From assembly GCF_003019035.1 (NCBI RefSeq), contig NZ_CP027447.1: a stretch of 64,000 nt of DNA; one strand, given 5' to 3'. Positions 1 to 8,903 of this stretch are shown here, piece after piece. The notes beneath the pieces are model-generated. The model searched no databases. It was not told where the DNA came from and worked only from the letters and a program-made list of their open reading frames with translations. Source of the stretch: Escherichia coli (GTDB lineage: Bacteria; Pseudomonadota; Gammaproteobacteria; Enterobacterales; Enterobacteriaceae). Position 1 is the first letter of the stretch. Each line of letters begins with the position of its first letter. The position numbers and the translations under genes were made by a program.

Positions 1-350
1 ATGAAAAAATAGACTCACTCTCCACCAGACTGGAGAAGAAATCCCGTATTCAGCCGCCTGAGCCTGATGAGGAGGTTAAGAAGCTGCGGGCGGAAGTGAC
101 AGCATTAGCGGTTGAGGCGGAATCTGCCATCGCCGTTCGATTGTCCAGCGCTTTTGAGACGCTGTGTGCATATTGTGCTGAAAACATGATTGATACCCCC
201 AGAGACTTCATGGCAGGCCTGGTCTGTCAACTGGAAAGCACAGCGCGTAGCCTGCGCTCCACATTTGACCTGCCGGACGAGCCAACAGGCAATGCAGCGC
301 CTTCATGGCTGACTGAGCCGACGCCACAGATTAACGGGCTGGAGGCATAA
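1..350 (+). CDS. hypothetical phage early protein, 5' end outside window
   Basis: Open frame runs from position 3 with no upstream stop to TAA at 348-350; it ends 3 nt before the transposase start. Does not resemble Mu Ner. Confidence 0.45.
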   Translation, partial: EKIDSLSTRLEKKSRIQPPEPDEEVKKLRAEVTALAVEAESAIAVRLSSAFETLCAYCAENMIDTPRDFMAGLVCQLESTARSLRSTFDLPDEPTGNAAPSWLTEPTPQINGLEA

Positions 351-353
351 CCA

Positions 354-2135
354 ATGAATGCTGCCCTGACTGAACGACTGGTTTATGTCGCCCGCGCGGC
401 ACGTGACGCGGGGCATGGTAAACGCGGTGCAATATACGACGCTGCCTGTGCTGAACTTGGCATGTCCCGCGCCACTCTGCTGCGCAGGCTGAAGGAGGTC
501 TCTGTGACTGATAAACGCAAAAAACGCGCCGATGCCGGGCGCAGCGCTCTGACCCGCGACGAAGCCGCGCTGATATCTGCCACACTGCGTGAGGCCACCC
601 GCAAGAACGGTAAGCGTCTCTATTCCATCGCAGATGCAGTGGAAACCCTGCGGGCTAACGGCTTTATCTCCGCAGGCAGAACAGATGAAACCACCGGTGA
701 GTTTTTCCCGTTGTCCGAAGATGCCATCAGTCGTGCCCTGCGTAACTATGGCCTGCACCCGGAACAACTGGATGCCCCTGCACCGCATACCGAAGTGGCC
801 AGTCTGCATCCCAATCATGTCTGGCAGATTGACGCCTCACTCTGCACGCTTTACTACCTGAGCAATGGACATAAAGGGCTGCAGGTGATGGACAGCGCGA
901 AGTTCTACAAGAACAAGCCCGCTAACCTTGCCCGTATCGCCAGTGACCGCGTGTGGAGTTACGAGATTACCGACCATGCCAGCGGCTGGATTTACGTTGA
1001 GTATGTGACGGGCGCGGAATCCGGTGAGAACCTGTGTTCTGTGCTTATCAACGCCATGCAGGAGCGCGGTGGCGCAGACGTGCTGCACGGCGTGCCGAAA
1101 ATACTCTATCTCGACCCTGGCTCGGCAAACACCGCGGGTATGACGAAAAACATGTGCCGCTCACTGGGCATCGACCTGATAGCGCACAGGCCGCATAACG
1201 CCCGCGCCACCGGACAGGTGGAAAAGGCGCGTGACATTATCGAACGCAAGCTGGAGCCGGGTCTGAAGTTCCGGCCGGTTCACAGTCTGGAAGAACTCAA
1301 CGCGCTGGCCGCGAAATGGCGCAGCCACTTTAACGCCACGGCTGTTCACAGCCGCCACGGTAAAACCCGCACGGATATCTGGCTGAAGATTACTGCTGAG
1401 CAGCTGAAAAAAGCGCCTTCCGTTGAAGTATGCCGTGAACTGGCTGTGGCGACACCAGAACTCCGCAAAGTCACGCCAAAACTTCGTGTCTCGTTCCGGG
1501 GCACTGAATTTGACGTATCAACGGTACCGGGCGTACTGGTTGGTGAAAAACTGATGATTACCCGTAACCCATGGCGCAGCGATGTGGCACAGGTGGTTCT
1601 GACCGGTGAGGACGGCCACGAGACGTTCTTCCTGGTCGAAGAGGTCAGAAAGAACGAGTTTGGCTTTGCTGAAGGCGCGGCGGTATTTGGCGAAAGTTAC
1701 AAAGCCCTGCCGGAAACCCCGGCACAGATGGCGGCAAAAGAAACCGAAGCGCTGGTTACCGGTACAGACAACGCCGCAGATGCAGCCGCCGCACGCAAGG
1801 CGAAGGCGCTGCCGTTCGGCGGGCGGCTTGACCCGTATAAACATATCGACGACACCACACTTCCGGCCTATATGCCGAAGCGTGGTCAGGCCTCTGACGT
1901 ACGCGGGCCGCGCACTGAACAACGTCCCATGACTCATGTGGAGGCCGCGAAAGCCCTGCGCGATAAGTTCAGCGCCGACGGCCTTACCTGGACGCCGGAA
2001 CATTACCGCCAGTTAACGGCACAGTACCCGGACGGCGTACCGGAAGCTGCACTGGATGAAGTCATGGCCACGCTGACCACGCCGGCCCGCAGCAGCGTTA
2101 TCAGCAGCGTTATCAGCATTGTTAACGGCAACTGA
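354..2135 (+). CDS. Mu-like DDE transposase (A-like, integrase-core family)
   Basis: 593 aa ORF, ATG at 354 with GGAGG upstream; integrase-core-like segment (HVWQIDAS...); sits directly upstream of a B-like ATPase as in Mu A-B. Confidence 0.8.
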   Translation: MNAALTERLVYVARAARDAGHGKRGAIYDAACAELGMSRATLLRRLKEVSVTDKRKKRADAGRSALTRDEAALISATLREATRKNGKRLYSIADAVETLRANGFISAGRTDETTGEFFPLSEDAISRALRNYGLHPEQLDAPAPHTEVASLHPNHVWQIDASLCTLYYLSNGHKGLQVMDSAKFYKNKPANLARIASDRVWSYEITDHASGWIYVEYVTGAESGENLCSVLINAMQERGGADVLHGVPKILYLDPGSANTAGMTKNMCRSLGIDLIAHRPHNARATGQVEKARDIIERKLEPGLKFRPVHSLEELNALAAKWRSHFNATAVHSRHGKTRTDIWLKITAEQLKKAPSVEVCRELAVATPELRKVTPKLRVSFRGTEFDVSTVPGVLVGEKLMITRNPWRSDVAQVVLTGEDGHETFFLVEEVRKNEFGFAEGAAVFGESYKALPETPAQMAAKETEALVTGTDNAADAAAARKAKALPFGGRLDPYKHIDDTTLPAYMPKRGQASDVRGPRTEQRPMTHVEAAKALRDKFSADGLTWTPEHYRQLTAQYPDGVPEAALDEVMATLTTPARSSVISSVISIVNGN

Positions 2136-2145
2136 GGAGGAAAAC

Positions 2146-3312
2146 ATGCTGGTACTGAAGCAGCAACTGAAAGAGGCCCGTATCCCACAGGCGGTGGTGG
2201 CGAGAGCTGTCGATGTTTCTGAGGCCACGCTGGCCCAGATTGTGAATCATAACGCGTGGCCCCGCACCCGCCCCGGAGAAGTGCGCCGGCGTCTTGCGTC
2301 CTGGCTGGAAAGTCAGGGGATTGATACAACGAAGAGTTTTGATGCTGTACAGGGCGCGGCCACGCCCCGTACAGCGGGTACCACAGATAAAACGAGCCTC
2401 AGTGAGGAAGAGAATATGTTACTCAAAAAACAGGTGTTATTTCCAGCAACCAAAAAAGCGTTTGGTCTTTTCCGTGACCCGTTCGCCGACGAAGCCATGC
2501 AGGGTTCTGATGATGTGTTCACCACCCCGGACATTCGCTACGTGCGTGAGGCGCTGTACCAGACAGCCCGTCATGGTGGGTTTATGGCCGTCATCGGTGA
2601 GTCCGGTGCGGGTAAATCCACGCTGCGCCGCGACCTGACTGAACGTATCAACCGCGAGAATGCGCCGGTAATTGTTATCGAGCCATACATCATCGCTATG
2701 GAAGACAACGATGTGAAAGGGAAAACCCTGAAGGCAGCAGCTATTGCCGAAGCCATTATCAGTACCATCGCACCACTGGAAAGCATCAGACGCAGTCAGG
2801 ACGCCCGCTTTCGCCAGTTGCATCGCGTCCTGAAAGACAGCAGCCAGGCGGGGTTCAGCCACGTTCTGGTGATTGAGGAGGCTCACAGTCTGCCCATTCC
2901 GACACTGAAACACCTCAAACGCTTTTTTGAGCTGGAGTCCGGTTTCAAAAAACTGCTGTCCATCGTGCTGATTGGTCAGCCGGAACTGGCGACAAAACTG
3001 TCTGAACGCAATATGGAAGTCCGTGAAGTCGTTCAGCGCTGTGAGGTGGTCGAACTTCTGCCTCTGGACAATAACCTTGAAGAGTTTCTGACGTTCAAAC
3101 TGCAACGGGCCGGTAAACAACTGACGGACATTATGGACGCCAGTGCAGTGGATGCCATACGTGCCCGCCTGAGCAATCCGGGAAGTCATCGTAAAAATAT
3201 GGTCAGCCTGCTGTATCCGCTGGCCGTCAGTAACCTGGTGATAGCCGCCATGAATCTGGCCGCTGAAATCGGGGTTCCACAGGTCAACGCTGACGTTGTC
3301 AAAGGGGTTTAA
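2146..3312 (+). CDS. Mu B-like AAA+ transposition ATPase
   Basis: ATG 2146 preceded by GAGGAGG; Walker A GESGAGKST, Walker B-like VLVIEEAHSL; N-terminal HTH-like segment; overlaps A stop. Track ORF starts at TTG 2119, but the ATG at 2146 has the better RBS. Confidence 0.8.
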   Translation: MLVLKQQLKEARIPQAVVARAVDVSEATLAQIVNHNAWPRTRPGEVRRRLASWLESQGIDTTKSFDAVQGAATPRTAGTTDKTSLSEEENMLLKKQVLFPATKKAFGLFRDPFADEAMQGSDDVFTTPDIRYVREALYQTARHGGFMAVIGESGAGKSTLRRDLTERINRENAPVIVIEPYIIAMEDNDVKGKTLKAAAIAEAIISTIAPLESIRRSQDARFRQLHRVLKDSSQAGFSHVLVIEEAHSLPIPTLKHLKRFFELESGFKKLLSIVLIGQPELATKLSERNMEVREVVQRCEVVELLPLDNNLEEFLTFKLQRAGKQLTDIMDASAVDAIRARLSNPGSHRKNMVSLLYPLAVSNLVIAAMNLAAEIGVPQVNADVVKGV

Positions 3313-3314
3313 TA

Positions 3315-3584
3315 ATGAAATCCACCACAGGTATCAACCAGCAAATCAGCAAAGTGCAGTCAGCCATTATGGCGCTTAAGGCGACGAACACGGATGTACA
3401 AAGCATCACCATCAGGGGTAACAAACCTGTCATCCGCGTTTCCCGGAGTGCGCATTGCATGCGCATGCTTGAGCAGGGAAAGGCCTGTTATCTGTATACC
3501 GGACATGACCACAGGGGATATTTCCGTCAGGGCGTTTTCGAACTGCACGGCTGTCGCGTCGTGTGGCCGGAATCTTTGTGGTAA
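3315..3584 (+). CDS. hypothetical small protein (89 aa) between B and gam
   Basis: ATG 3315 with AAAGGGG RBS, 2 nt after B stop; no recognisable motif. Confidence 0.5.
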   Translation: MKSTTGINQQISKVQSAIMALKATNTDVQSITIRGNKPVIRVSRSAHCMRMLEQGKACYLYTGHDHRGYFRQGVFELHGCRVVWPESLW

Positions 3585-3611
3585 TCAGCACAACTGGAGA
3601 AATCATAAAAT

Positions 3612-4142
3612 ATGGCAAAAAGTACAAAAGGGGCAAAACGTATCAAGTCCGCAGCGGCACTCTGGGTACCAGGGACACGCGAAGAGGTCATTGAGGGCAT
3701 CAGACTGCTCGGTGACGCACAACGTGAACTGGTCAGGGCTGAAACAGAAATGAATGACGCCATTGGCGATATCACCGCACGTTATGCCCCGCTCACCGAG
3801 AGCCTGAAAAAACGCATGGCCGAACTGCAGTCCGGTATTCAGACATGGTGTGAGGCACACCGTGATGAACTGACCGGCAACGGGAAGGTGAAGTTCGCTA
3901 ACCTCACCACCGGCGAGGTGCAGTGGCGAAACCGTCCGCCATCAGTCAGTATCCGTGGAGCGGATAATGTTATTGAACTACTGAGACGTCTGGGGCTTGA
4001 GCGCTTTATTCGTGTAAAAGAGGAAATAAATAAAGATGCCATTCTGAATGAAAAAGAGGCCGTGAAAAATATTCCCGGTATTACCATAAAAAGTGATATT
4101 GAGGATTTTTCAATAATTCCTTTTGAGCAGGATGTGCAGTAA
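3612..4142 (+). CDS. gam: Gam-like host-nuclease inhibitor (Mu Gam / Ku-like DNA end-binding)
   Basis: 176 aa; N-terminus MAK...KRIKSAAA, ETEMNDAI, and C-terminal EDFSIIPFEQ closely match recalled phage Mu Gam. Confidence 0.88.
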   Translation: MAKSTKGAKRIKSAAALWVPGTREEVIEGIRLLGDAQRELVRAETEMNDAIGDITARYAPLTESLKKRMAELQSGIQTWCEAHRDELTGNGKVKFANLTTGEVQWRNRPPSVSIRGADNVIELLRRLGLERFIRVKEEINKDAILNEKEAVKNIPGITIKSDIEDFSIIPFEQDVQ

Positions 4143-4184
4143 ACACACCACGTTAATTATTTAATAAAAATATTTTCTTTTTTA

Positions 4185-4221
4185 TTCCGGCGTCAGCGCC
4201 GTGGGCTTCTGCACGCCGGAA
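4185..4221 (+). promoter_or_regulatory. inverted repeat / hairpin in AT-rich intergenic region after gam
   Basis: ttccggcgt (4185-4193) pairs with acgccggaa (4213-4221), preceded by a T-rich tract; may be a gam terminator or an operator for the next operon. Confidence 0.3.
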
Positions 4222-4239
4222 ACAGAGGAGAATTAAATT

Positions 4240-4434
4240 ATGATATTTAAATGTATTCAGTGCGAGAGGGATATAACAGCCCTGCGTTTTCACAGCGCCA
4301 TCGCCGTGATGTCCGGTAAATACCACATCCCTGCGGTACGCGTCACCCTGGTCTGCCCGTACTGCAGCCAGCATTTTTCGGCGGACGTGCCCGTCATGGA
4401 ATTCTCCCGCCCTGACAGGGAGGACGCGCAATGA
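4240..4434 (+). CDS. small zinc-ribbon protein (64 aa; CxxC...CxxC)
   Basis: ATG 4240 with GAGGAG RBS; Cys pairs CIQC and CPYC about 30 residues apart. Confidence 0.55.
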   Translation: MIFKCIQCERDITALRFHSAIAVMSGKYHIPAVRVTLVCPYCSQHFSADVPVMEFSRPDREDAQ

Positions 4435-4703
4435 TTACCCCACAGGAAGCACGACAGCGCACCCGAACCCTTGTTGAACACTATGTCAACGAGTGTGAAT
4501 GCCGCGACCTCACCGATGTGAAGCACGTCCTGACGGCGCTAATCAGCATGGCCGCTCAGGCCATTGTGGCGACCAACGGAAAGGCGGCTGCCCTGCAGGT
4601 ACTGGTGAACACACTCACCCACACGGCAGAGCATGAGGTGCCGTACCGGATGGAAACCACTGCAGAAGGCGGCCTGCACATCACCGTCAGCCGGAAGCAC
4701 TGA
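4431..4703 (+). CDS. hypothetical protein (90 aa)
   Basis: ATGA start/stop overlap with the preceding gene, GGGAGG RBS; no recognised domain. Confidence 0.5.
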   Translation: MITPQEARQRTRTLVEHYVNECECRDLTDVKHVLTALISMAAQAIVATNGKAAALQVLVNTLTHTAEHEVPYRMETTAEGGLHITVSRKH

Positions 4704-4712
4704 GGGCGCGGC

Positions 4713-5009
4713 ATGACACGAAACACCGAACTCACCCGCACCGCCCTCTACCGTCTGGCCCTGCACCGTTTCGGGCCGGACGCACAGGCCCTGAAACTGA
4801 CAGAAGAGGCCGCTGAACTGGCGGCCAGTGCTGCCCGCAATCTGAACGGACAGGGCAACGAAAGTGACCTCGCGGCAGAGCTGGCAGACGTGGAAATCAT
4901 GACAGAGCAATTGCGCCTTCAGGGGATGGACCGGCTGATTGACTTCCACAAACAGAAAAAACTGGAACGTCTGGCTGCACGACTGGGCGTGATTTACACG
5001 AACGAGTAA
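4713..5009 (+). CDS. MazG-like nucleotide pyrophosphohydrolase-domain protein (putative)
   Basis: 98 aa; EEAAELA and ELADVEI motifs resemble the EExxE and ExxD helices of small MazG/NTP-PPase proteins; GAGGG RBS. Confidence 0.45.
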   Translation: MTRNTELTRTALYRLALHRFGPDAQALKLTEEAAELAASAARNLNGQGNESDLAAELADVEIMTEQLRLQGMDRLIDFHKQKKLERLAARLGVIYTNE

Positions 5010-5023
5010 CCGGGAGGCATTCA

Positions 5024-5239
5024 ATGGCTGACATACTCAGGGAAATCACCGCATGGATACTGATTCTTACTGGCCTGGCGACATGCCTCAGTGCGGGGGC
5101 AGCCCTGGCTGCCCTGCTGATGCACATAACAACACAGTGGTTATGGGAAAAGCTTAAAGCAGCATACAGCCTGAAAGAGCTGTCCGACGCTGTCCGGGCA
5201 TGGAAACGGCAGAAAAATACCGGAGATACAGAACAATGA
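5024..5239 (+). CDS. small membrane protein (71 aa, one predicted TM helix)
   Basis: ATG 5024 with GGGAGG RBS; hydrophobic segment ITAWILILTGLATCLSAGAALAALLM; ATGA overlap with the next gene. Confidence 0.5.
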   Translation: MADILREITAWILILTGLATCLSAGAALAALLMHITTQWLWEKLKAAYSLKELSDAVRAWKRQKNTGDTEQ

Positions 5240-5919
5240 CAGACCAGAATAAACACATTGAGAAACTGAAAAAGTTGCTGGCGCTGGCCGCATCCGGCAA
5301 CCCGCACGAGGCCGCTCTGGCACTGCGCCGAGCCCGTAAACTGATGGATGTTCACGGCATCACACATTCCGACATTGCTATGAGTGATATTGATGAAACC
5401 ATCAGTCATTACTGGCCGACAGGCAGTCTCCGTCCACCGCGCTACATGCTGGGCCTGATGAACATCATCCGCGAGGCATTTGGTGTTAACTCCATCATTC
5501 ACCCCGGCACGCATCCGTCTGTGGGGTTCTACGGTAACCGGGAACGAGCGGCACTGGCTGCGTACACCTGGGAAGTGCTGGTCCGCCAGCTGAAAAAGGC
5601 GCGTCAGCAGTATATCAGCGCACAGAACAAAAGAATAAAAAACGCCACCCGTACCAGCCGTGGAGACCAGTTTGCTGAAGGCTGGGTACTGGCCGTTATC
5701 AGTGAAATACAGTCCTTTGCCCTGACCGATGATGAGCGTGAACTGATGCAACAGTGGCTGGAACATAAATACCCGCAAACGCAAACCACCAGGGCGCGTA
5801 AACCGGGAAGAAGCCGCAATGGCGACGCCTCGCGCTATGCGGGGTTTCGTGAAGGGCAGAACGTCAGACTGCACCGCCCGGTCAGTGGGCAGGAACAACA
5901 GAAACTGGAGGCCAGATGA
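5236..5919 (+). CDS. DUF2786-like phage protein (227 aa)
   Basis: N-terminal motif KLKKLLALAASGNPHEAALALRRARKLM is typical of the DUF2786 family; GGAGA RBS. Confidence 0.55.
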   Translation: MTDQNKHIEKLKKLLALAASGNPHEAALALRRARKLMDVHGITHSDIAMSDIDETISHYWPTGSLRPPRYMLGLMNIIREAFGVNSIIHPGTHPSVGFYGNRERAALAAYTWEVLVRQLKKARQQYISAQNKRIKNATRTSRGDQFAEGWVLAVISEIQSFALTDDERELMQQWLEHKYPQTQTTRARKPGRSRNGDASRYAGFREGQNVRLHRPVSGQEQQKLEAR

Positions 5920-6146
5920 TTACGCTATCAGGTAACAGCCGGAAATTAAAAGCCTGCCGAATATCTGCCAGATACCTTTTTGCCCGCGCCTTTTTTAAGA
6001 ACGTCAGGCCGGGGATCACAATTGGTGTTATTGCCGGACGCGAACAGGTTGAAAAATACATGTCAGGTGCATGGTGGGATAACGACCCTGTCATTGCTGC
6101 CCGTAATATTCATATCAGTTGGGGGGATATTCAGAATGACGGCTGA
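5916..6146 (+). CDS. hypothetical protein (76 aa)
   Basis: ATGA overlap with DUF2786 gene stop, GGAG RBS 5 nt upstream; no domain recognised. Confidence 0.4.
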   Translation: MITLSGNSRKLKACRISARYLFARAFFKNVRPGITIGVIAGREQVEKYMSGAWWDNDPVIAARNIHISWGDIQNDG

Positions 6147-6351
6147 ATCTGTTGTATGTGCCCTGTTCTGGTATTGTTTTGTCGGTTGGTGTACTGCTGA
6201 ACTGCACCGCCGTTCAGGGTTTTATTCACGTTACAGTGGTGCCGGCTACTGGATTAGCTGGTCGGTGATGTTCCTGTGCTGGCCTGTGGCGCTTCCTTTA
6301 TATGTCGGTTATATCGGTGGCGCAGGTAAAAGGAGCAACGATGATGACTAA
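6136..6351 (+). CDS. small membrane protein (71 aa, two predicted TM helices)
   Basis: ATG 6136 preceded by GGGGGG; two hydrophobic, W/C-rich helices; 3' end overlaps gemA start. Confidence 0.45.
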   Translation: MTAESVVCALFWYCFVGWCTAELHRRSGFYSRYSGAGYWISWSVMFLCWPVALPLYVGYIGGAGKRSNDDD

Positions 6352-6793
6352 ACAACGTCTTATCCAGCTCATTCATATTGCCCGTAATGAACTGGGTATG
6401 GATGAAGACACCTACCGCCAGATGTTACAGGGGCTGACCGGTAAAGCCTCAACCAAAGGAATGGATACCACACAACTAAACTGCGTGCTGGAATCCATGA
6501 AAAGGAAAGGCTTTCGCGTTAAGCCTGCCGGAAAAGCCAGCTCCGGTTTACCGCTGGATAACCATCCGCAGTCCAGGAAAATCCGTGCGCTATGGCTTGA
6601 AATGGCTGCTGCCGGCATTGTTCGTGACCGTTCAGAAAATGCATTAGCGCGGTGGATCAAGCGGGAAACGGGCATCAGCGCCCTGCGCTGGCTCAATACT
6701 GAACAGGCAAGCAGTGTTATTGAGAAACTGAAGAAGTGGCAGCACAGAGCTGCGGGAGTAAAACATGAGCGACCTGAATCAGTTTCGAAGTAA
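6341..6793 (+). CDS. gemA: GemA-like protein (Mu gp16 family)
   Basis: ATG 6341 with AAAGGAG RBS; N-terminus MMTKQRLIQLIHIARNELGMDEDTYRQ matches the GemA family; 3' end overlaps mor by 29 nt. Confidence 0.8.
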   Translation: MMTKQRLIQLIHIARNELGMDEDTYRQMLQGLTGKASTKGMDTTQLNCVLESMKRKGFRVKPAGKASSGLPLDNHPQSRKIRALWLEMAAAGIVRDRSENALARWIKRETGISALRWLNTEQASSVIEKLKKWQHRAAGVKHERPESVSK

Positions 6794-7163
6794 AGGGCCG
6801 GAACTCCTGGTGGAGCTGGCACAGCATACCTCTGAGACCGTTCGCGAGATTATTGATATTGAGCCCGCAATTGCCGACCAGATTGGTCAGGCCGTCGCGA
6901 ACCGAATGATGCAGGTCTGGGGCGGGCAAAACGTTTATTTCCCGATGGGCATGGTATGGAAGGTCAGTCAGCGCGACCGGGAAATCTTCAGGGAGTTTAA
7001 CGGACGCAACCACCACGAACTGGCCCGCAAGTTTGGTGTTTCGCTTCAGTGGGTCTACAGCGTGGTTAAGCGGGTCAGAAAAGAAGAACTGGATCGGATG
7101 CAGGGCAGGTTGTTTGATGAAGATCTGCCAGAGGAGACGAAAGACGTTAACAAATCCAGATAA
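6765..7163 (+). CDS. mor: Mor-like middle-operon transcriptional activator
   Basis: 132 aa; GGQNVYFP motif and C-terminal HTH resemble Mu Mor; GGGAG RBS. Confidence 0.82.
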   Translation: MSDLNQFRSKGPELLVELAQHTSETVREIIDIEPAIADQIGQAVANRMMQVWGGQNVYFPMGMVWKVSQRDREIFREFNGRNHHELARKFGVSLQWVYSVVKRVRKEELDRMQGRLFDEDLPEETKDVNKSR

Positions 7164-7205
7164 TTCCTGCTTGTTAAAGTCCTTTCAAAAATCTCCTTAT
7201 TGTAT

Positions 7206-7240
7206 AAAAGCACGGTAGACCCCTTACCGTGCTTTTTTTA
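7206..7240 (+). terminator. rho-independent terminator after mor
   Basis: Stem agcacggta / taccgtgct with 7-nt loop, followed by a T7 run (7234-7240). Confidence 0.6.
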
Positions 7241-7277
7241 TGCTCTCTCTTTAGTATTCAGGATGCAGGGAGAAAAT

Positions 7278-7910
7278 ATGTTTGACGTTTCGTTGTTAAA
7301 TCTGCCATGGGCAACACTGGTGACCCTGACCAGTGGCTATATTGGGTATTTTATTGCGAATGTGGGACTGAAGGATCACCACAAGCCCATTGAGGTGACT
7401 TTTTCTTCGCTGATTTTTGGCCTGACAGCAATGATGGCTTACCAGGCTGTTATGTGGGCAGGTCTGAATGCCTGGCTGGCAACACCACCAGCACTTCTGT
7501 GTGCCGTTACATGCGGTGCGTGGTGGCGCAGGTACGGTCGCAAATGGATGTACAGATTACTGTGGAATAATGATATTTCATGGTCTGACGATACCAGCTC
7601 AGCATGGCAGGCAATGTTTGATCAAACAGGCTTCAGCGTTACCGAGGTCAGAGTGATTCTTCGCGATGGTTCCGGTATGATGTCACGGCTGCCAGGGAAC
7701 TTTGAAGAGTGGCCTAACGGTCCGTTTACCCTGGGGAATAAAGGCGATATGGTTCTTTACGTCACGCACAGCAGCCCTTCAGGCAGTAACGAATGGGAAG
7801 AGTATAAAGGCGTGGTTGATAAGTACTGGGGAGCTCTGGCAACCTATATTCCAGCAGATCAGATTGCCAGAGTGGAGATCAGGCGCGTTCGTGCAACGAA
7901 CGATGAATGA
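7278..7910 (+). CDS. orphan membrane protein (211 aa; three N-terminal TM helices plus about 125-aa soluble C-terminal domain), function unknown
   Basis: ATG 7278 with AGGGAGA RBS 6 nt upstream; hydrophobic helices at roughly residues 8-30, 40-63 and 67-83; sits where Mu carries late activator C; no family recognised. Confidence 0.6.
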   Translation: MFDVSLLNLPWATLVTLTSGYIGYFIANVGLKDHHKPIEVTFSSLIFGLTAMMAYQAVMWAGLNAWLATPPALLCAVTCGAWWRRYGRKWMYRLLWNNDISWSDDTSSAWQAMFDQTGFSVTEVRVILRDGSGMMSRLPGNFEEWPNGPFTLGNKGDMVLYVTHSSPSGSNEWEEYKGVVDKYWGALATYIPADQIARVEIRRVRATNDE

Positions 7911-8295
7911 TGTTTATTTTTTCCCTGGGGCAGGGGCTGCCGGCATAGTGGTTTTATTGGCAGAGGAAGACGATTCTCCTTTTCTACCGGAATCGCGCTC
8001 GAACGTCACGATGTGCTTGCTTTTGGGCTTTTCTGAGTAATCCAGGCTATCATGCTTATTGTTTTGAGTAGTCATTGGAATCATCCTTTTTGTTGCGGGT
8101 CATGTTTCAGCAAACTCGATTCTAAGTTGCCAGGAAGGATGATTTCAATGCCCGACTTATCTATCGTATAGCGGAAAAGAATTTCAGTTCTGTTCACCAG
8201 AACCCATGTTAACCCACTCCAATTCGTTATTTATCTCACGGATCCCCCTTCATTTATCTCATGTCTGATCAAATCAATAATCATCATGAATGTTT

Positions 8296-8435: not shown

Positions 8436-8903
8436 ATGATTAAACGCGTATTGGTTGTTTCAATGGTAGGTCTGTCTCTTGTCGGTTGTGTTAATAACGA
8501 CACCCTGTCAGGGGATGTTTATACCGCTTCTGAAGCGAAACAAGTACAGAATGTCAGCTATGGCACCATCGTTAACGTACGTCCGGTACAGATTCAGGGC
8601 GGTGATGATTCCAACGTTATCGGTGCAATTGGCGGTGCTGTTCTTGGTGGTTTCCTGGGGAATACTGTTGGCGGCGGAACCGGGCGTTCTCTGGCTACTG
8701 CAGCAGGCGCTGTTGCAGGTGGCGTAGCCGGTCAGGGCGTACAGAGTGCAATGAACAAAACGCAGGGTGTCGAGCTGGAAATTCGTAAAGACGATGGTAA
8801 TACCATCATGGTGGTACAGAAACAAGGCAACACTCGTTTCTCTCCGGGCCAACGTGTCGTACTGGCCAGCAATGGCAGTCAGGTGACCGTTTCCCCGCGC
8901 TAA
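8436..8903 (+). CDS. slyB: outer membrane lipoprotein SlyB
   Basis: 155 aa; lipobox LVGC and Gly-rich core match E. coli SlyB. Confidence 0.95.
   Translation: MIKRVLVVSMVGLSLVGCVNNDTLSGDVYTASEAKQVQNVSYGTIVNVRPVQIQGGDDSNVIGAIGGAVLGGFLGNTVGGGTGRSLATAAGAVAGGVAGQGVQSAMNKTQGVELEIRKDDGNTIMVVQKQGNTRFSPGQRVVLASNGSQVTVSPR

Follow-up and report, generated by a model that had tools for sequence, protein, structure and literature searches.

We analysed a 64,000-nucleotide (nt) stretch of the Escherichia coli contig NZ_CP027447.1 (hereafter the window) and found that the minus-strand open reading frame (ORF) located at 7914-8075 is very probably a genuine protein-coding gene, judging from how its sequence is kept across homologous loci. 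Its product of 53 amino acids (aa) and the 210-aa inner-membrane protein encoded convergently beside it are probably functional partners. The account that we favor as a whole, in which this real small gene and its membrane-protein partner form a two-gene cassette and a candidate phage-conflict module, seems to us reasonably likely. The initial annotation of this DNA had placed two mutually exclusive small ORFs in this region, a plus-strand ORF of 45 aa starting at ATG 7903 within ATGAATGA, and a minus-strand ORF of 53 aa at 7914-8075 preceded by AAGGA. Both are indeed located there, and they are mutually exclusive as antisense mirror frames of which only the minus one is supported. The reading frames concerned are the following.

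7914-8075, minus strand: small protein gene, 53 aa (MTTQNNKHDSLDYSEKPKSKHIVTFERDSGRKGESSSSANKTTMPAAPAPGKK), ATG at 8075, stop at 7914-7916
7278-7910, plus strand: partner gene, 210-aa inner-membrane protein, distant DUF6338 relative
7903-8040, plus strand: mirror (shadow) ORF of 45 codons, not a gene, ATG at 7903-7905, stop at 8038-8040, read as the peptide MNDVYFFPGAGAAG...

The minus-strand ORF and the membrane gene are convergent, and their stops are separated by 3 nt. ORF length is of little help in this region. Indeed, in 5000 mononucleotide shuffles of 7911-8271, an ATG-initiated ORF reached 53 aa or more in 20% of the cases and 45 aa or more in 34%. ORFs this long are thus frequent by chance and the verdict therefore rests on comparison; unlike the length of the ORF, the conservation of the minus-strand frame and of its signals is beyond chance. 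The position, orientation and length of the small gene are kept in E. coli variants, Salmonella, Klebsiella, Citrobacter, Serratia, Proteus and alpha-proteobacteria, and more than 20 loci, drawn from two proteobacterial classes, have an orthologue of 41-62 aa with an ATG start at this position and in this orientation. A minus-strand ORF with an ATG start abuts the membrane gene in two further E. coli loci (L002 and L003 in our numbering of the compared loci), in Salmonella, Citrobacter, Klebsiella and Proteus, and in three Serratia loci, and again in Bradyrhizobium, Afipia, Devosia, Pseudochrobactrum, Sphingobium, other alpha-proteobacteria and metagenomic contigs.

The protein itself carries recognizable motifs. 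The E. coli product begins with MTTQNNKHDSLDYSEKPKSK and ends with PAAPAPGKK; it is hydrophilic and predicted to be disordered, with an aromatic motif, D[YF]SE.PK, close to the N-terminus and PxxP..KK as its C-terminal tail. The orthologues have in common either D[YF]SE.PK or Y-x-P, together with a proline-rich tail ending in Lys or Arg, and these motifs persist where the DNA can no longer be aligned. We also considered polyproline ribosome stalling as a conserved feature and rejected it for the enteric branch, as no two prolines are adjacent in the E. coli tail PAAPAPGKK.

The substitution pattern points the same way. In a variant with 5 of 261 bases changed, all four changes located in the ORF fall at third positions and are synonymous, leaving the protein identical, and in a variant of 89% identity (L005) the start, stop and length of the minus-strand ORF are unchanged. 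Read in the minus frame, codon positions 1/2/3 diverge by 0.063/0.025/0.176 among ungapped close variants and by 0.43/0.32/0.61 across enteric genera. This order, 3 > 1 > 2, is that of coding sequence in the minus frame and does not suit the plus frame, with the caveat that the third positions are common to both mirror frames. The comparison of conservation and codon substitutions across homologous loci, which the initial annotation had proposed as a check, thus came out differently for its two ORFs: the minus one is conserved and diverges as coding sequence, and neither the start nor the frame of the plus one is conserved.

The plus-strand ORF is best considered an antisense mirror of the minus-strand gene, and not a gene of its own. 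The two frames are antisense and have their third codon positions in common (x mod 3 = 0); each thus mirrors the other. Because these positions are shared, counts of synonymous and non-synonymous changes do not discriminate between the frames (11 and 5, respectively, for the minus frame of L005, and 9 and 7 for the plus frame), as must hold for any small ORFs in mirror frames. Such ORFs can nevertheless be separated by start-codon conservation, by which of positions 1 and 2 diverges more, and by expression signals. The Gly/Ala/Val-rich "hydrophobic core" that had been pointed out in the plus-strand peptide follows from the same mirror relationship: it comes from reading, on the opposite strand, the Pro/Ala codons at the C-terminal end of the minus-strand ORF, and does not survive as a feature of a real peptide.

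One could still imagine that the plus-strand ORF is translated by coupling to the membrane gene and yields a small hydrophobic peptide. Its ATG is located inside the overlap motif ATGAATGA (7903-7910), which ends with the TGA that terminates the membrane gene, its frame, of which the translation begins MNDVYFFPGAGAAGIVVLLAEEDD..., is open for 45 codons, and several other loci likewise have an open plus frame opposite the small gene. However, the ATG is replaced by ATA in L005, no start is present at that site in L002, and the ORF is absent from L003. The plus frames of other genera, although often open, encode unrelated sequences of 31-115 aa with TTG, GTG or ATG starts. Moreover, position 1 of the plus frame is the least variable (0.025) and position 2 is higher (0.063), which is atypical of coding sequence, the synonymous-type third-position changes extend past its stop up to 8075, and no Shine-Dalgarno (SD) sequence was found upstream of ATG 7903. 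We consider such translation highly improbable.

The small gene is already present in the databases, as "hypothetical": RefSeq annotates it as a coding sequence in other genomes (WP_001571575.1 and variants), and its product matches phrog_15726 (PHROG 15726) over its full length (E=1e-41). It gave no match in Pfam, NCBIfam or PADLOC, and none when sequenced phages were searched by tblastn; a word-indexed protein search returned relatives of at least 79% identity only.

Upstream of the start codon, the minus strand carries a set of predicted expression signals.

8084-8088, minus strand: Shine-Dalgarno sequence AAGGA, 8 nt upstream of ATG 8075; AAGGAT is invariant in eight enteric loci
8119-8148, minus strand: predicted sigma-70-type promoter, with -35 TTGAAA (8148-8143), an 18-nt spacer and -10 TAGAAT (8124-8119)
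8073-8150, minus strand: inverted repeat, with 5' arm CATTGAAATCATCCTT (8150-8135) and 3' arm AAGGATGATTCCAATG (8088-8073)
8186-8204, minus strand: terminator-like hairpin, GGTTCTGGTGAACAGAACT then GAAATTCTTT, between the phage end and the promoter (consensus scan and fold)

The predicted promoter matches 10 of the 12 consensus positions, stands 44 nt upstream of the start codon, and would place the transcription start at about 8112. The same two hexamers, spaced by 17-18 nt, are found at the equivalent site in Salmonella, Klebsiella and Serratia, where the flanks diverge, and the Proteus/L003 subgroup has a different region upstream of the small gene. An alternative in-frame ATG at 8084 would extend the product to 56 aa, but it is located within the SD sequence.

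The inverted repeat has 16 nt per arm, and covers both sets of signals, the 5' arm spanning the -35 box and the spacer and the 3' arm spanning the SD sequence and the ATG. Its pairing holds in 84.8% of the cells of eight enteric sequences, versus 26-50% with a slid partner; one pair covaries, being CG in four sequences and UA in four, and the minimum free energy fold of 8215-8060 contains the helix. These observations suggest that the arms would pair in a transcript reading in from outside and hide the ribosome site, the transcript of the promoter itself being devoid of the 5' arm. The inverted repeat may equally well be read as a DNA operator bound by a protein. The first possibility recalls the fold-back inhibition of IS10/Tn10, in which a complement of the ribosome-binding site is likewise located upstream of the element's own transcription start and only read-in transcripts hide the start; here, however, the arrangement is deduced from covariation and folding, the protected gene is not a transposase, and the operator alternative has to be kept. 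The hairpin at 8186-8204 may provide insulation against read-in transcription from host DNA. An Rfam search of the minus-strand unit matched no family.

The partner gene encodes a protein modeled with three transmembrane (TM) helices (11-27, 37-60 and 65-97) followed by a cytoplasmic small beta-barrel (~119-205). This C-terminal domain superposes on Sm-fold proteins, as a small beta-barrel of the Sm/LSm-like type. The protein corresponds to phrog_12870, and its homologues occur throughout Enterobacterales, in alpha-proteobacteria and in one Synechococcus phage; a profile search gathered about 530 representative relatives among 1.84 billion proteins. The membrane protein of the window matched no Pfam family at E<=1, DUF6338 (PF19865) included, and DUF6338 matches were weak in 17 of 31 relatives (best 8.5e-6), the precomputed matches on homologues being mostly "faint". 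We therefore treat it as a distant relative of DUF6338 and not as a scored member. Cpta_toxin matches were obtained in only 3 of the 31 relatives, below threshold (E=0.037). No solved structure of a relative exists. A structural search with the model gave no MscS-like or defense-effector match, and a search of BFVD gave one significant, uncharacterized match.

Some individual homologues show particular features. The Synechococcus phage Ssp-JY41 (L023, PP438431.1, 1-744) encodes a 29%-identical homologue as the first gene of a 20-kb cyanophage record, which ends at this gene. In the E. coli sequence NZ_CP100530.1 (L008), a 2-nt deletion at about 1523-1524, corresponding to 7883-7884 of the window, frameshifts the last residues of the membrane protein, and the small protein is identical. 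The C-terminus of the Candidatus Pantoea persica membrane protein is shared by those of Symbiopectobacterium and Arsenophonus.

The association of the two genes was examined by searching for convergent ORFs of 30-100 aa ending within 15 nt of a stop codon, for the 24 membrane genes with enough downstream sequence and, as controls, for 120 other ORFs of at least 150 aa from the same loci.

Membrane genes (n=24): convergent small ORF in 22, of which 20 with a proline tail
Other ORFs of at least 150 aa (n=120): convergent small ORF in 26, of which 2 with a proline tail

The stop-to-stop distance, 3 nt here, ranges from -11 to +13 nt elsewhere, and the pair is kept together down to about 31-46% identity of the membrane protein, in unrelated contexts. 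Besides the loci where it occupies the cargo slot of a Mu-like phage, it is located between the head-tail connector and head-completion genes of another, unrelated prophage in Pseudochrobactrum (L030), directly after Thoeris ThsB/ThsA in L031, beside a resolvase in L032, beside an insertion sequence element and an integrase in L033, and beside a tape-measure gene in L035. As far as the compared sequences allow us to judge, the pair travels as a unit between prophages and defense or mobile islands of gamma- and alpha-proteobacteria. The proposal that either small ORF could be a partner of the membrane protein can accordingly be kept for the minus-strand ORF (22/24 versus 26/120 for a convergent ORF, 20 versus 2 for the proline tail) and is lost for the plus-strand one, whose start is ATA in L005 and which is absent from L003. 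A search of the literature with the accessions and PHROG identifiers, and for Mu-like satellites or morons, found nothing relevant, and the pairing at the family level and its distribution appear to be undescribed.

In Sphingobium and in one metagenomic contig, the small gene is present in three tandem copies (L033 2008-2339 and L039 2609-2977). The triplicated genes have the common motif QPKAPPPPPP...PPPP[SQ][KR]G, in line with the three small proteins of Pseudomonas stutzeri discussed below.

The closest described system is the P. stutzeri locus made of a DUF6338 gene and small-protein genes, which has not been recognized as a family. In P. stutzeri ATCC 14405, digest-free mass spectrometry detected three novel proline-rich small proteins encoded immediately downstream of a DUF6338 gene (Anal Chem 2023, PMC10433244). 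Two of the sequences, MVSSPGSGVQTNGANPPAPANVRPAMAPTAPPPPKK and MTKKIGGNPGSPVQGGVNKETTSQRPSAPPSAPPPPPKKGG, were retrieved (98-100% coverage); they are of the type MVSS...APPPPKK and MTKK...APPPPPKKGG, and the authors concluded that the small genes form an operon and are not conserved beyond P. stutzeri (PMC10433244). The likeness to the pair studied here lies in a DUF6338-type membrane protein flanked by tiny hydrophilic proteins with proline-rich, Lys-type tails, and in the tandem triplet, which recurs in Sphingobium and in the metagenomic contig. The alpha-proteobacterial partners, for example ...TTNERPSTPPPSPKKK, are in the same style. By analogy, the P. stutzeri peptides lend support to the translation of such ORFs, and conversely the pairing gives meaning to three orphan proteins of a proteomics study that had been reported as unconserved. 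The two systems differ in that the E. coli membrane protein has no Pfam DUF6338 score. Searches for the P. stutzeri locus by the exact small-protein sequences found nothing on record.

The window provides the genomic context of the E. coli pair. Positions 1-8271 belong to a BcepMu-like transposable prophage, of which they form the early-operon arm, and the insertion lies upstream of slyB. The early operon runs in the order transposase A (354-2135), B, Gam, DUF2786, GemA and Mor (6765-7163), and the late genes lie past the left edge of the window on the opposite, divergent strand. This Mu-type early operon (A, B, Gam, GemA, Mor), the divergent late module and the occurrence at many chromosomal sites are those of a BcepMu-like transposable prophage (Bcepmuvirus), and its transposase is 98% identical to that of Escherichia phage PhiKM and 68% identical to that of BcepMu. 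The features that delimit the cassette are the following.

6765-7163, plus strand: mor (Mor transcription activator; Pfam PF08765, E=1e-43), last gene of the early operon, which marks the cargo slot
7206-7236, plus strand: strong intrinsic terminator after mor, a 13-bp stem then T7, which divides the early operon from the two-gene cassette
8229-8271: prophage right end, with the terminal CA at 8270-8271 (5'-TG on the minus strand); similarity to copies at other chromosomal sites ends here, and the ends align across genera
8260-8252 and 8237-8229: two direct repeats GAGATAAAT, presumed transposase-binding sites

The cargo slot extends from the terminator to the phage end and holds here the 210-aa membrane-protein gene and the small minus-strand gene. 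It is empty in BcepMu, where no further gene is annotated over the 364 bp between mor and the phage end, and in PhiKM, where only ~165 bp follow mor, and it holds a different gene in KP12. A hairpin with a T-run, built on different stems, is present at the post-mor position in other E. coli variants, Klebsiella and Proteus; the Salmonella hairpin has a shorter T-run and was not flagged by the terminator scan. The possibility that the 7206-7236 hairpin is a Mor-binding dyad (centered at about -43 from a weak -10) was rejected, as the stem sequence varies by genus and the structure and T-run persist.

How could the cassette work? The small gene would be read inward from its own sigma-70 promoter just inside the prophage end, in a cassette that sits behind the early-operon terminator, within the variable slot between mor and the phage end. 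The disordered small protein might bind the cytoplasmic barrel of its partner through linear motifs, as a labile antitoxin, an immunity factor or a regulator, and the cassette might then act in superinfection exclusion or abortive infection. Because the abutting 3' ends leave no room for a terminator, the two transcripts are expected to overlap, and this overlap could add mutual antisense or transcriptional interference, opposing the lytic-phase or early-side transcription of the phage to that of the small gene, in an inverse coupling. What we would thus propose for the cassette is a role in conflicts between phages or between phage and host, through superinfection exclusion or abortive infection. 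That the small protein is a modulator of a membrane effector is a tentative assignment, and the "regulator or antitoxin-like" role suggested in the initial annotation likewise stands as a supposition. More speculative still is the extension to a whole undescribed two-component conflict family, in which a DUF6338-like membrane protein and a convergent proline-tailed micro-protein, spread over prophages and defense islands across Proteobacteria, would act in abortive infection, superinfection exclusion or as a toxin-antitoxin (TA) system: a hard-to-translate or labile micro-protein would restrain a ring-forming, holin-like effector, and its loss at infection or upon translation shut-off would trigger the effector.

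Several observations weigh against the account that we favor. Neither protein matched the defense models of PADLOC-DB 2.0 at E<=1. The scan identified no promoter for the membrane gene, which is separated from the upstream terminator by ~40 nt. The loci used in the pairing test are not phylogenetically independent, even if they span two proteobacterial classes and different neighborhoods. The P. stutzeri small genes are co-directional with the DUF6338 gene, whereas the genes are convergent here and in 22 of the 24 loci. In Ca. Pantoea persica (L027 3633-3800), a deletion has removed the small gene together with the -10 of its promoter, the membrane ORF is intact and part of the promoter's 5' arm is left, which argues against an indispensable antitoxin. 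Finally, when the two proteins were joined through a linker and modeled with AlphaFold2, the small protein had a predicted local distance difference test (pLDDT) score of 32-43 and did not dock, so that direct binding is without computational support.

The last two points would be expected if the genes were independent pieces of cargo sharing one slot, the function of the small protein being unrelated to the membrane protein, and so would their opposite strands and separate promoters. This is nonetheless difficult to reconcile with the pair being found together in unrelated contexts and in two classes, at ~31-46% membrane-protein identity, or with an enrichment of 20/24 versus 2/120, and we regard independence as improbable. 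A different question is whether the functional product of the minus-strand unit is the protein at all. It could be an RNA, antisense to the 3' end of the membrane-protein mRNA as in type I TA systems, the peptide being incidental or secondary (a dual-function RNA). The geometry invites this idea: with stops 3 nt apart (-11 to +13 nt elsewhere) no terminator fits and the transcripts should overlap, no minus-strand terminator was found from 7914 to the 7236-7206 hairpin, and the convergent arrangement is retained at large evolutionary distances. The minus frame, however, diverges by codon position as a coding sequence, its protein motifs survive where the DNA is unalignable, its SD sequence and ATG are conserved, and Rfam has no match for it. 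Moreover, the related P. stutzeri proteins have been seen as peptides, and their genes are co-directional with the DUF6338 gene, so that what the loci have in common is the protein and not antisense pairing. We thus hold an RNA product to be unlikely.

The roles of the two proteins could also be exchanged, the small proline-rich proteins being the effectors, as bacteriocin-like products or as toxins akin to proline-rich antimicrobial peptides, either intracellular or released, and the membrane protein an immunity or export factor. The tandem triplicates of Sphingobium, the metagenomic contig and P. stutzeri do recall the multi-copy precursor genes of peptide loci, and the authors of the P. stutzeri study raise antimicrobial roles and note the presence of DUF6338 in biosynthetic clusters (PMC10433244). 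On the other hand, the small protein lacks a leader or signal sequence, and no maturation or export genes were found in the inspected neighborhoods. The enteric versions range from basic to strongly acidic, and those of E. coli have no consecutive prolines. These features set them apart from the PRP-repeat peptides, which are cationic. This exchange of roles is, in our opinion, about as doubtful as independence, and we retain the reading of a small protein acting together with a membrane-protein partner.

Compared with known systems, the cassette is moron-like; it lacks what defines a type I or a type II TA system, and corresponds to no catalogued defense model. As in phage morons and lysogenic-conversion cassettes, which are self-standing units of promoter, gene and terminator placed between conserved phage genes, it occupies a slot behind a terminator that is empty or otherwise filled in sister phages, the small gene has its own predicted promoter, and the Pseudochrobactrum pair is inserted between head genes of an unrelated prophage. 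It differs from them in being a convergent two-gene unit and not a single gene.

The resemblance to TA pairs with a membrane toxin (txpA/RatA, bsrG/SR4, CptA/CptB) lies in the association of a membrane protein with a small, probably labile partner in a mobile-element context. CptA/CptB combines a membrane toxin with a small soluble antitoxin, and the type I pairs txpA/RatA and bsrG/SR4 have in addition the convergent geometry with a 3' overlap. However, the membrane protein here has 210 aa and a folded cytoplasmic domain and is not a peptide of <60 aa, and its partner is a conserved protein and not an RNA, the antisense unit bearing a conserved coding frame. Type II systems are co-transcribed operons with a DNA-binding, autoregulating antitoxin; here, the genes are convergent with separate promoters, and the small protein is devoid of known domains and modeled as disordered.

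Likewise, the model of the membrane protein recalls the TM effectors of Cap15 type from cyclic-oligonucleotide-based antiphage signaling systems (CBASS), with N-terminal TM helices followed by a compact cytoplasmic beta-barrel, and some of the loci are near defense islands. Its TM part also shows a weak likeness to three-TM holins in BFVD (E 0.02-0.5). In contrast to both, there is no significant structure or sequence match and no adjacent nucleotide-signaling gene, and the barrel is Sm-like.

A gene annotated as "hypothetical" would thus belong to a dispersed, uncharacterized cassette, with ~530 representative membrane proteins and a proline-tailed micro-protein nearly always alongside. The positions of this cassette are those where phages and defense islands keep conflict genes, which makes it a candidate for a new exclusion or abortive-infection module. 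It is moreover carried by clinical E. coli, since ST131 (sequence type 131) isolates and ABU 83972, which has the identical locus, are among the ~120 complete E. coli genomes bearing it. The prophage itself is present in about 113-121 complete E. coli genomes, beside unrelated host genes (kefF, yodD, gudD, xylR, rhaS, tnaB), and is therefore mobile. Its size is ~38 kb and the window starts within it. The element had also been considered as a miniature Mu-like satellite without late genes, a reading that was rejected once the late module had been located on the opposite strand, left of the repressor.

The slot can hold other variable cargo. Between mor and the terminator, an extra small gene of 80-95 aa is present in L003 (9673-9915), L002 (9672-9914) and L018 (2690-2977); its product has a proline-rich C-terminus, for example ...NPPPPPPKC, and gave no match in PADLOC or NCBIfam.

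On the host side, the phage end (CA 8270-8271) is located 164 bp upstream of slyB (8436-8903), and the upstream regulatory region of this gene may therefore be affected. The piece of the phage end at 8118-8262 (145 bp) is ~89% identical to roughly 200 other E. coli records, without annotation under the match, and many of these matches are on large plasmids of poultry isolates. In the single such match that was inspected, NZ_CP065153.1, it is a solitary phage-end remnant adjoining IS1 and IS3 fragments.

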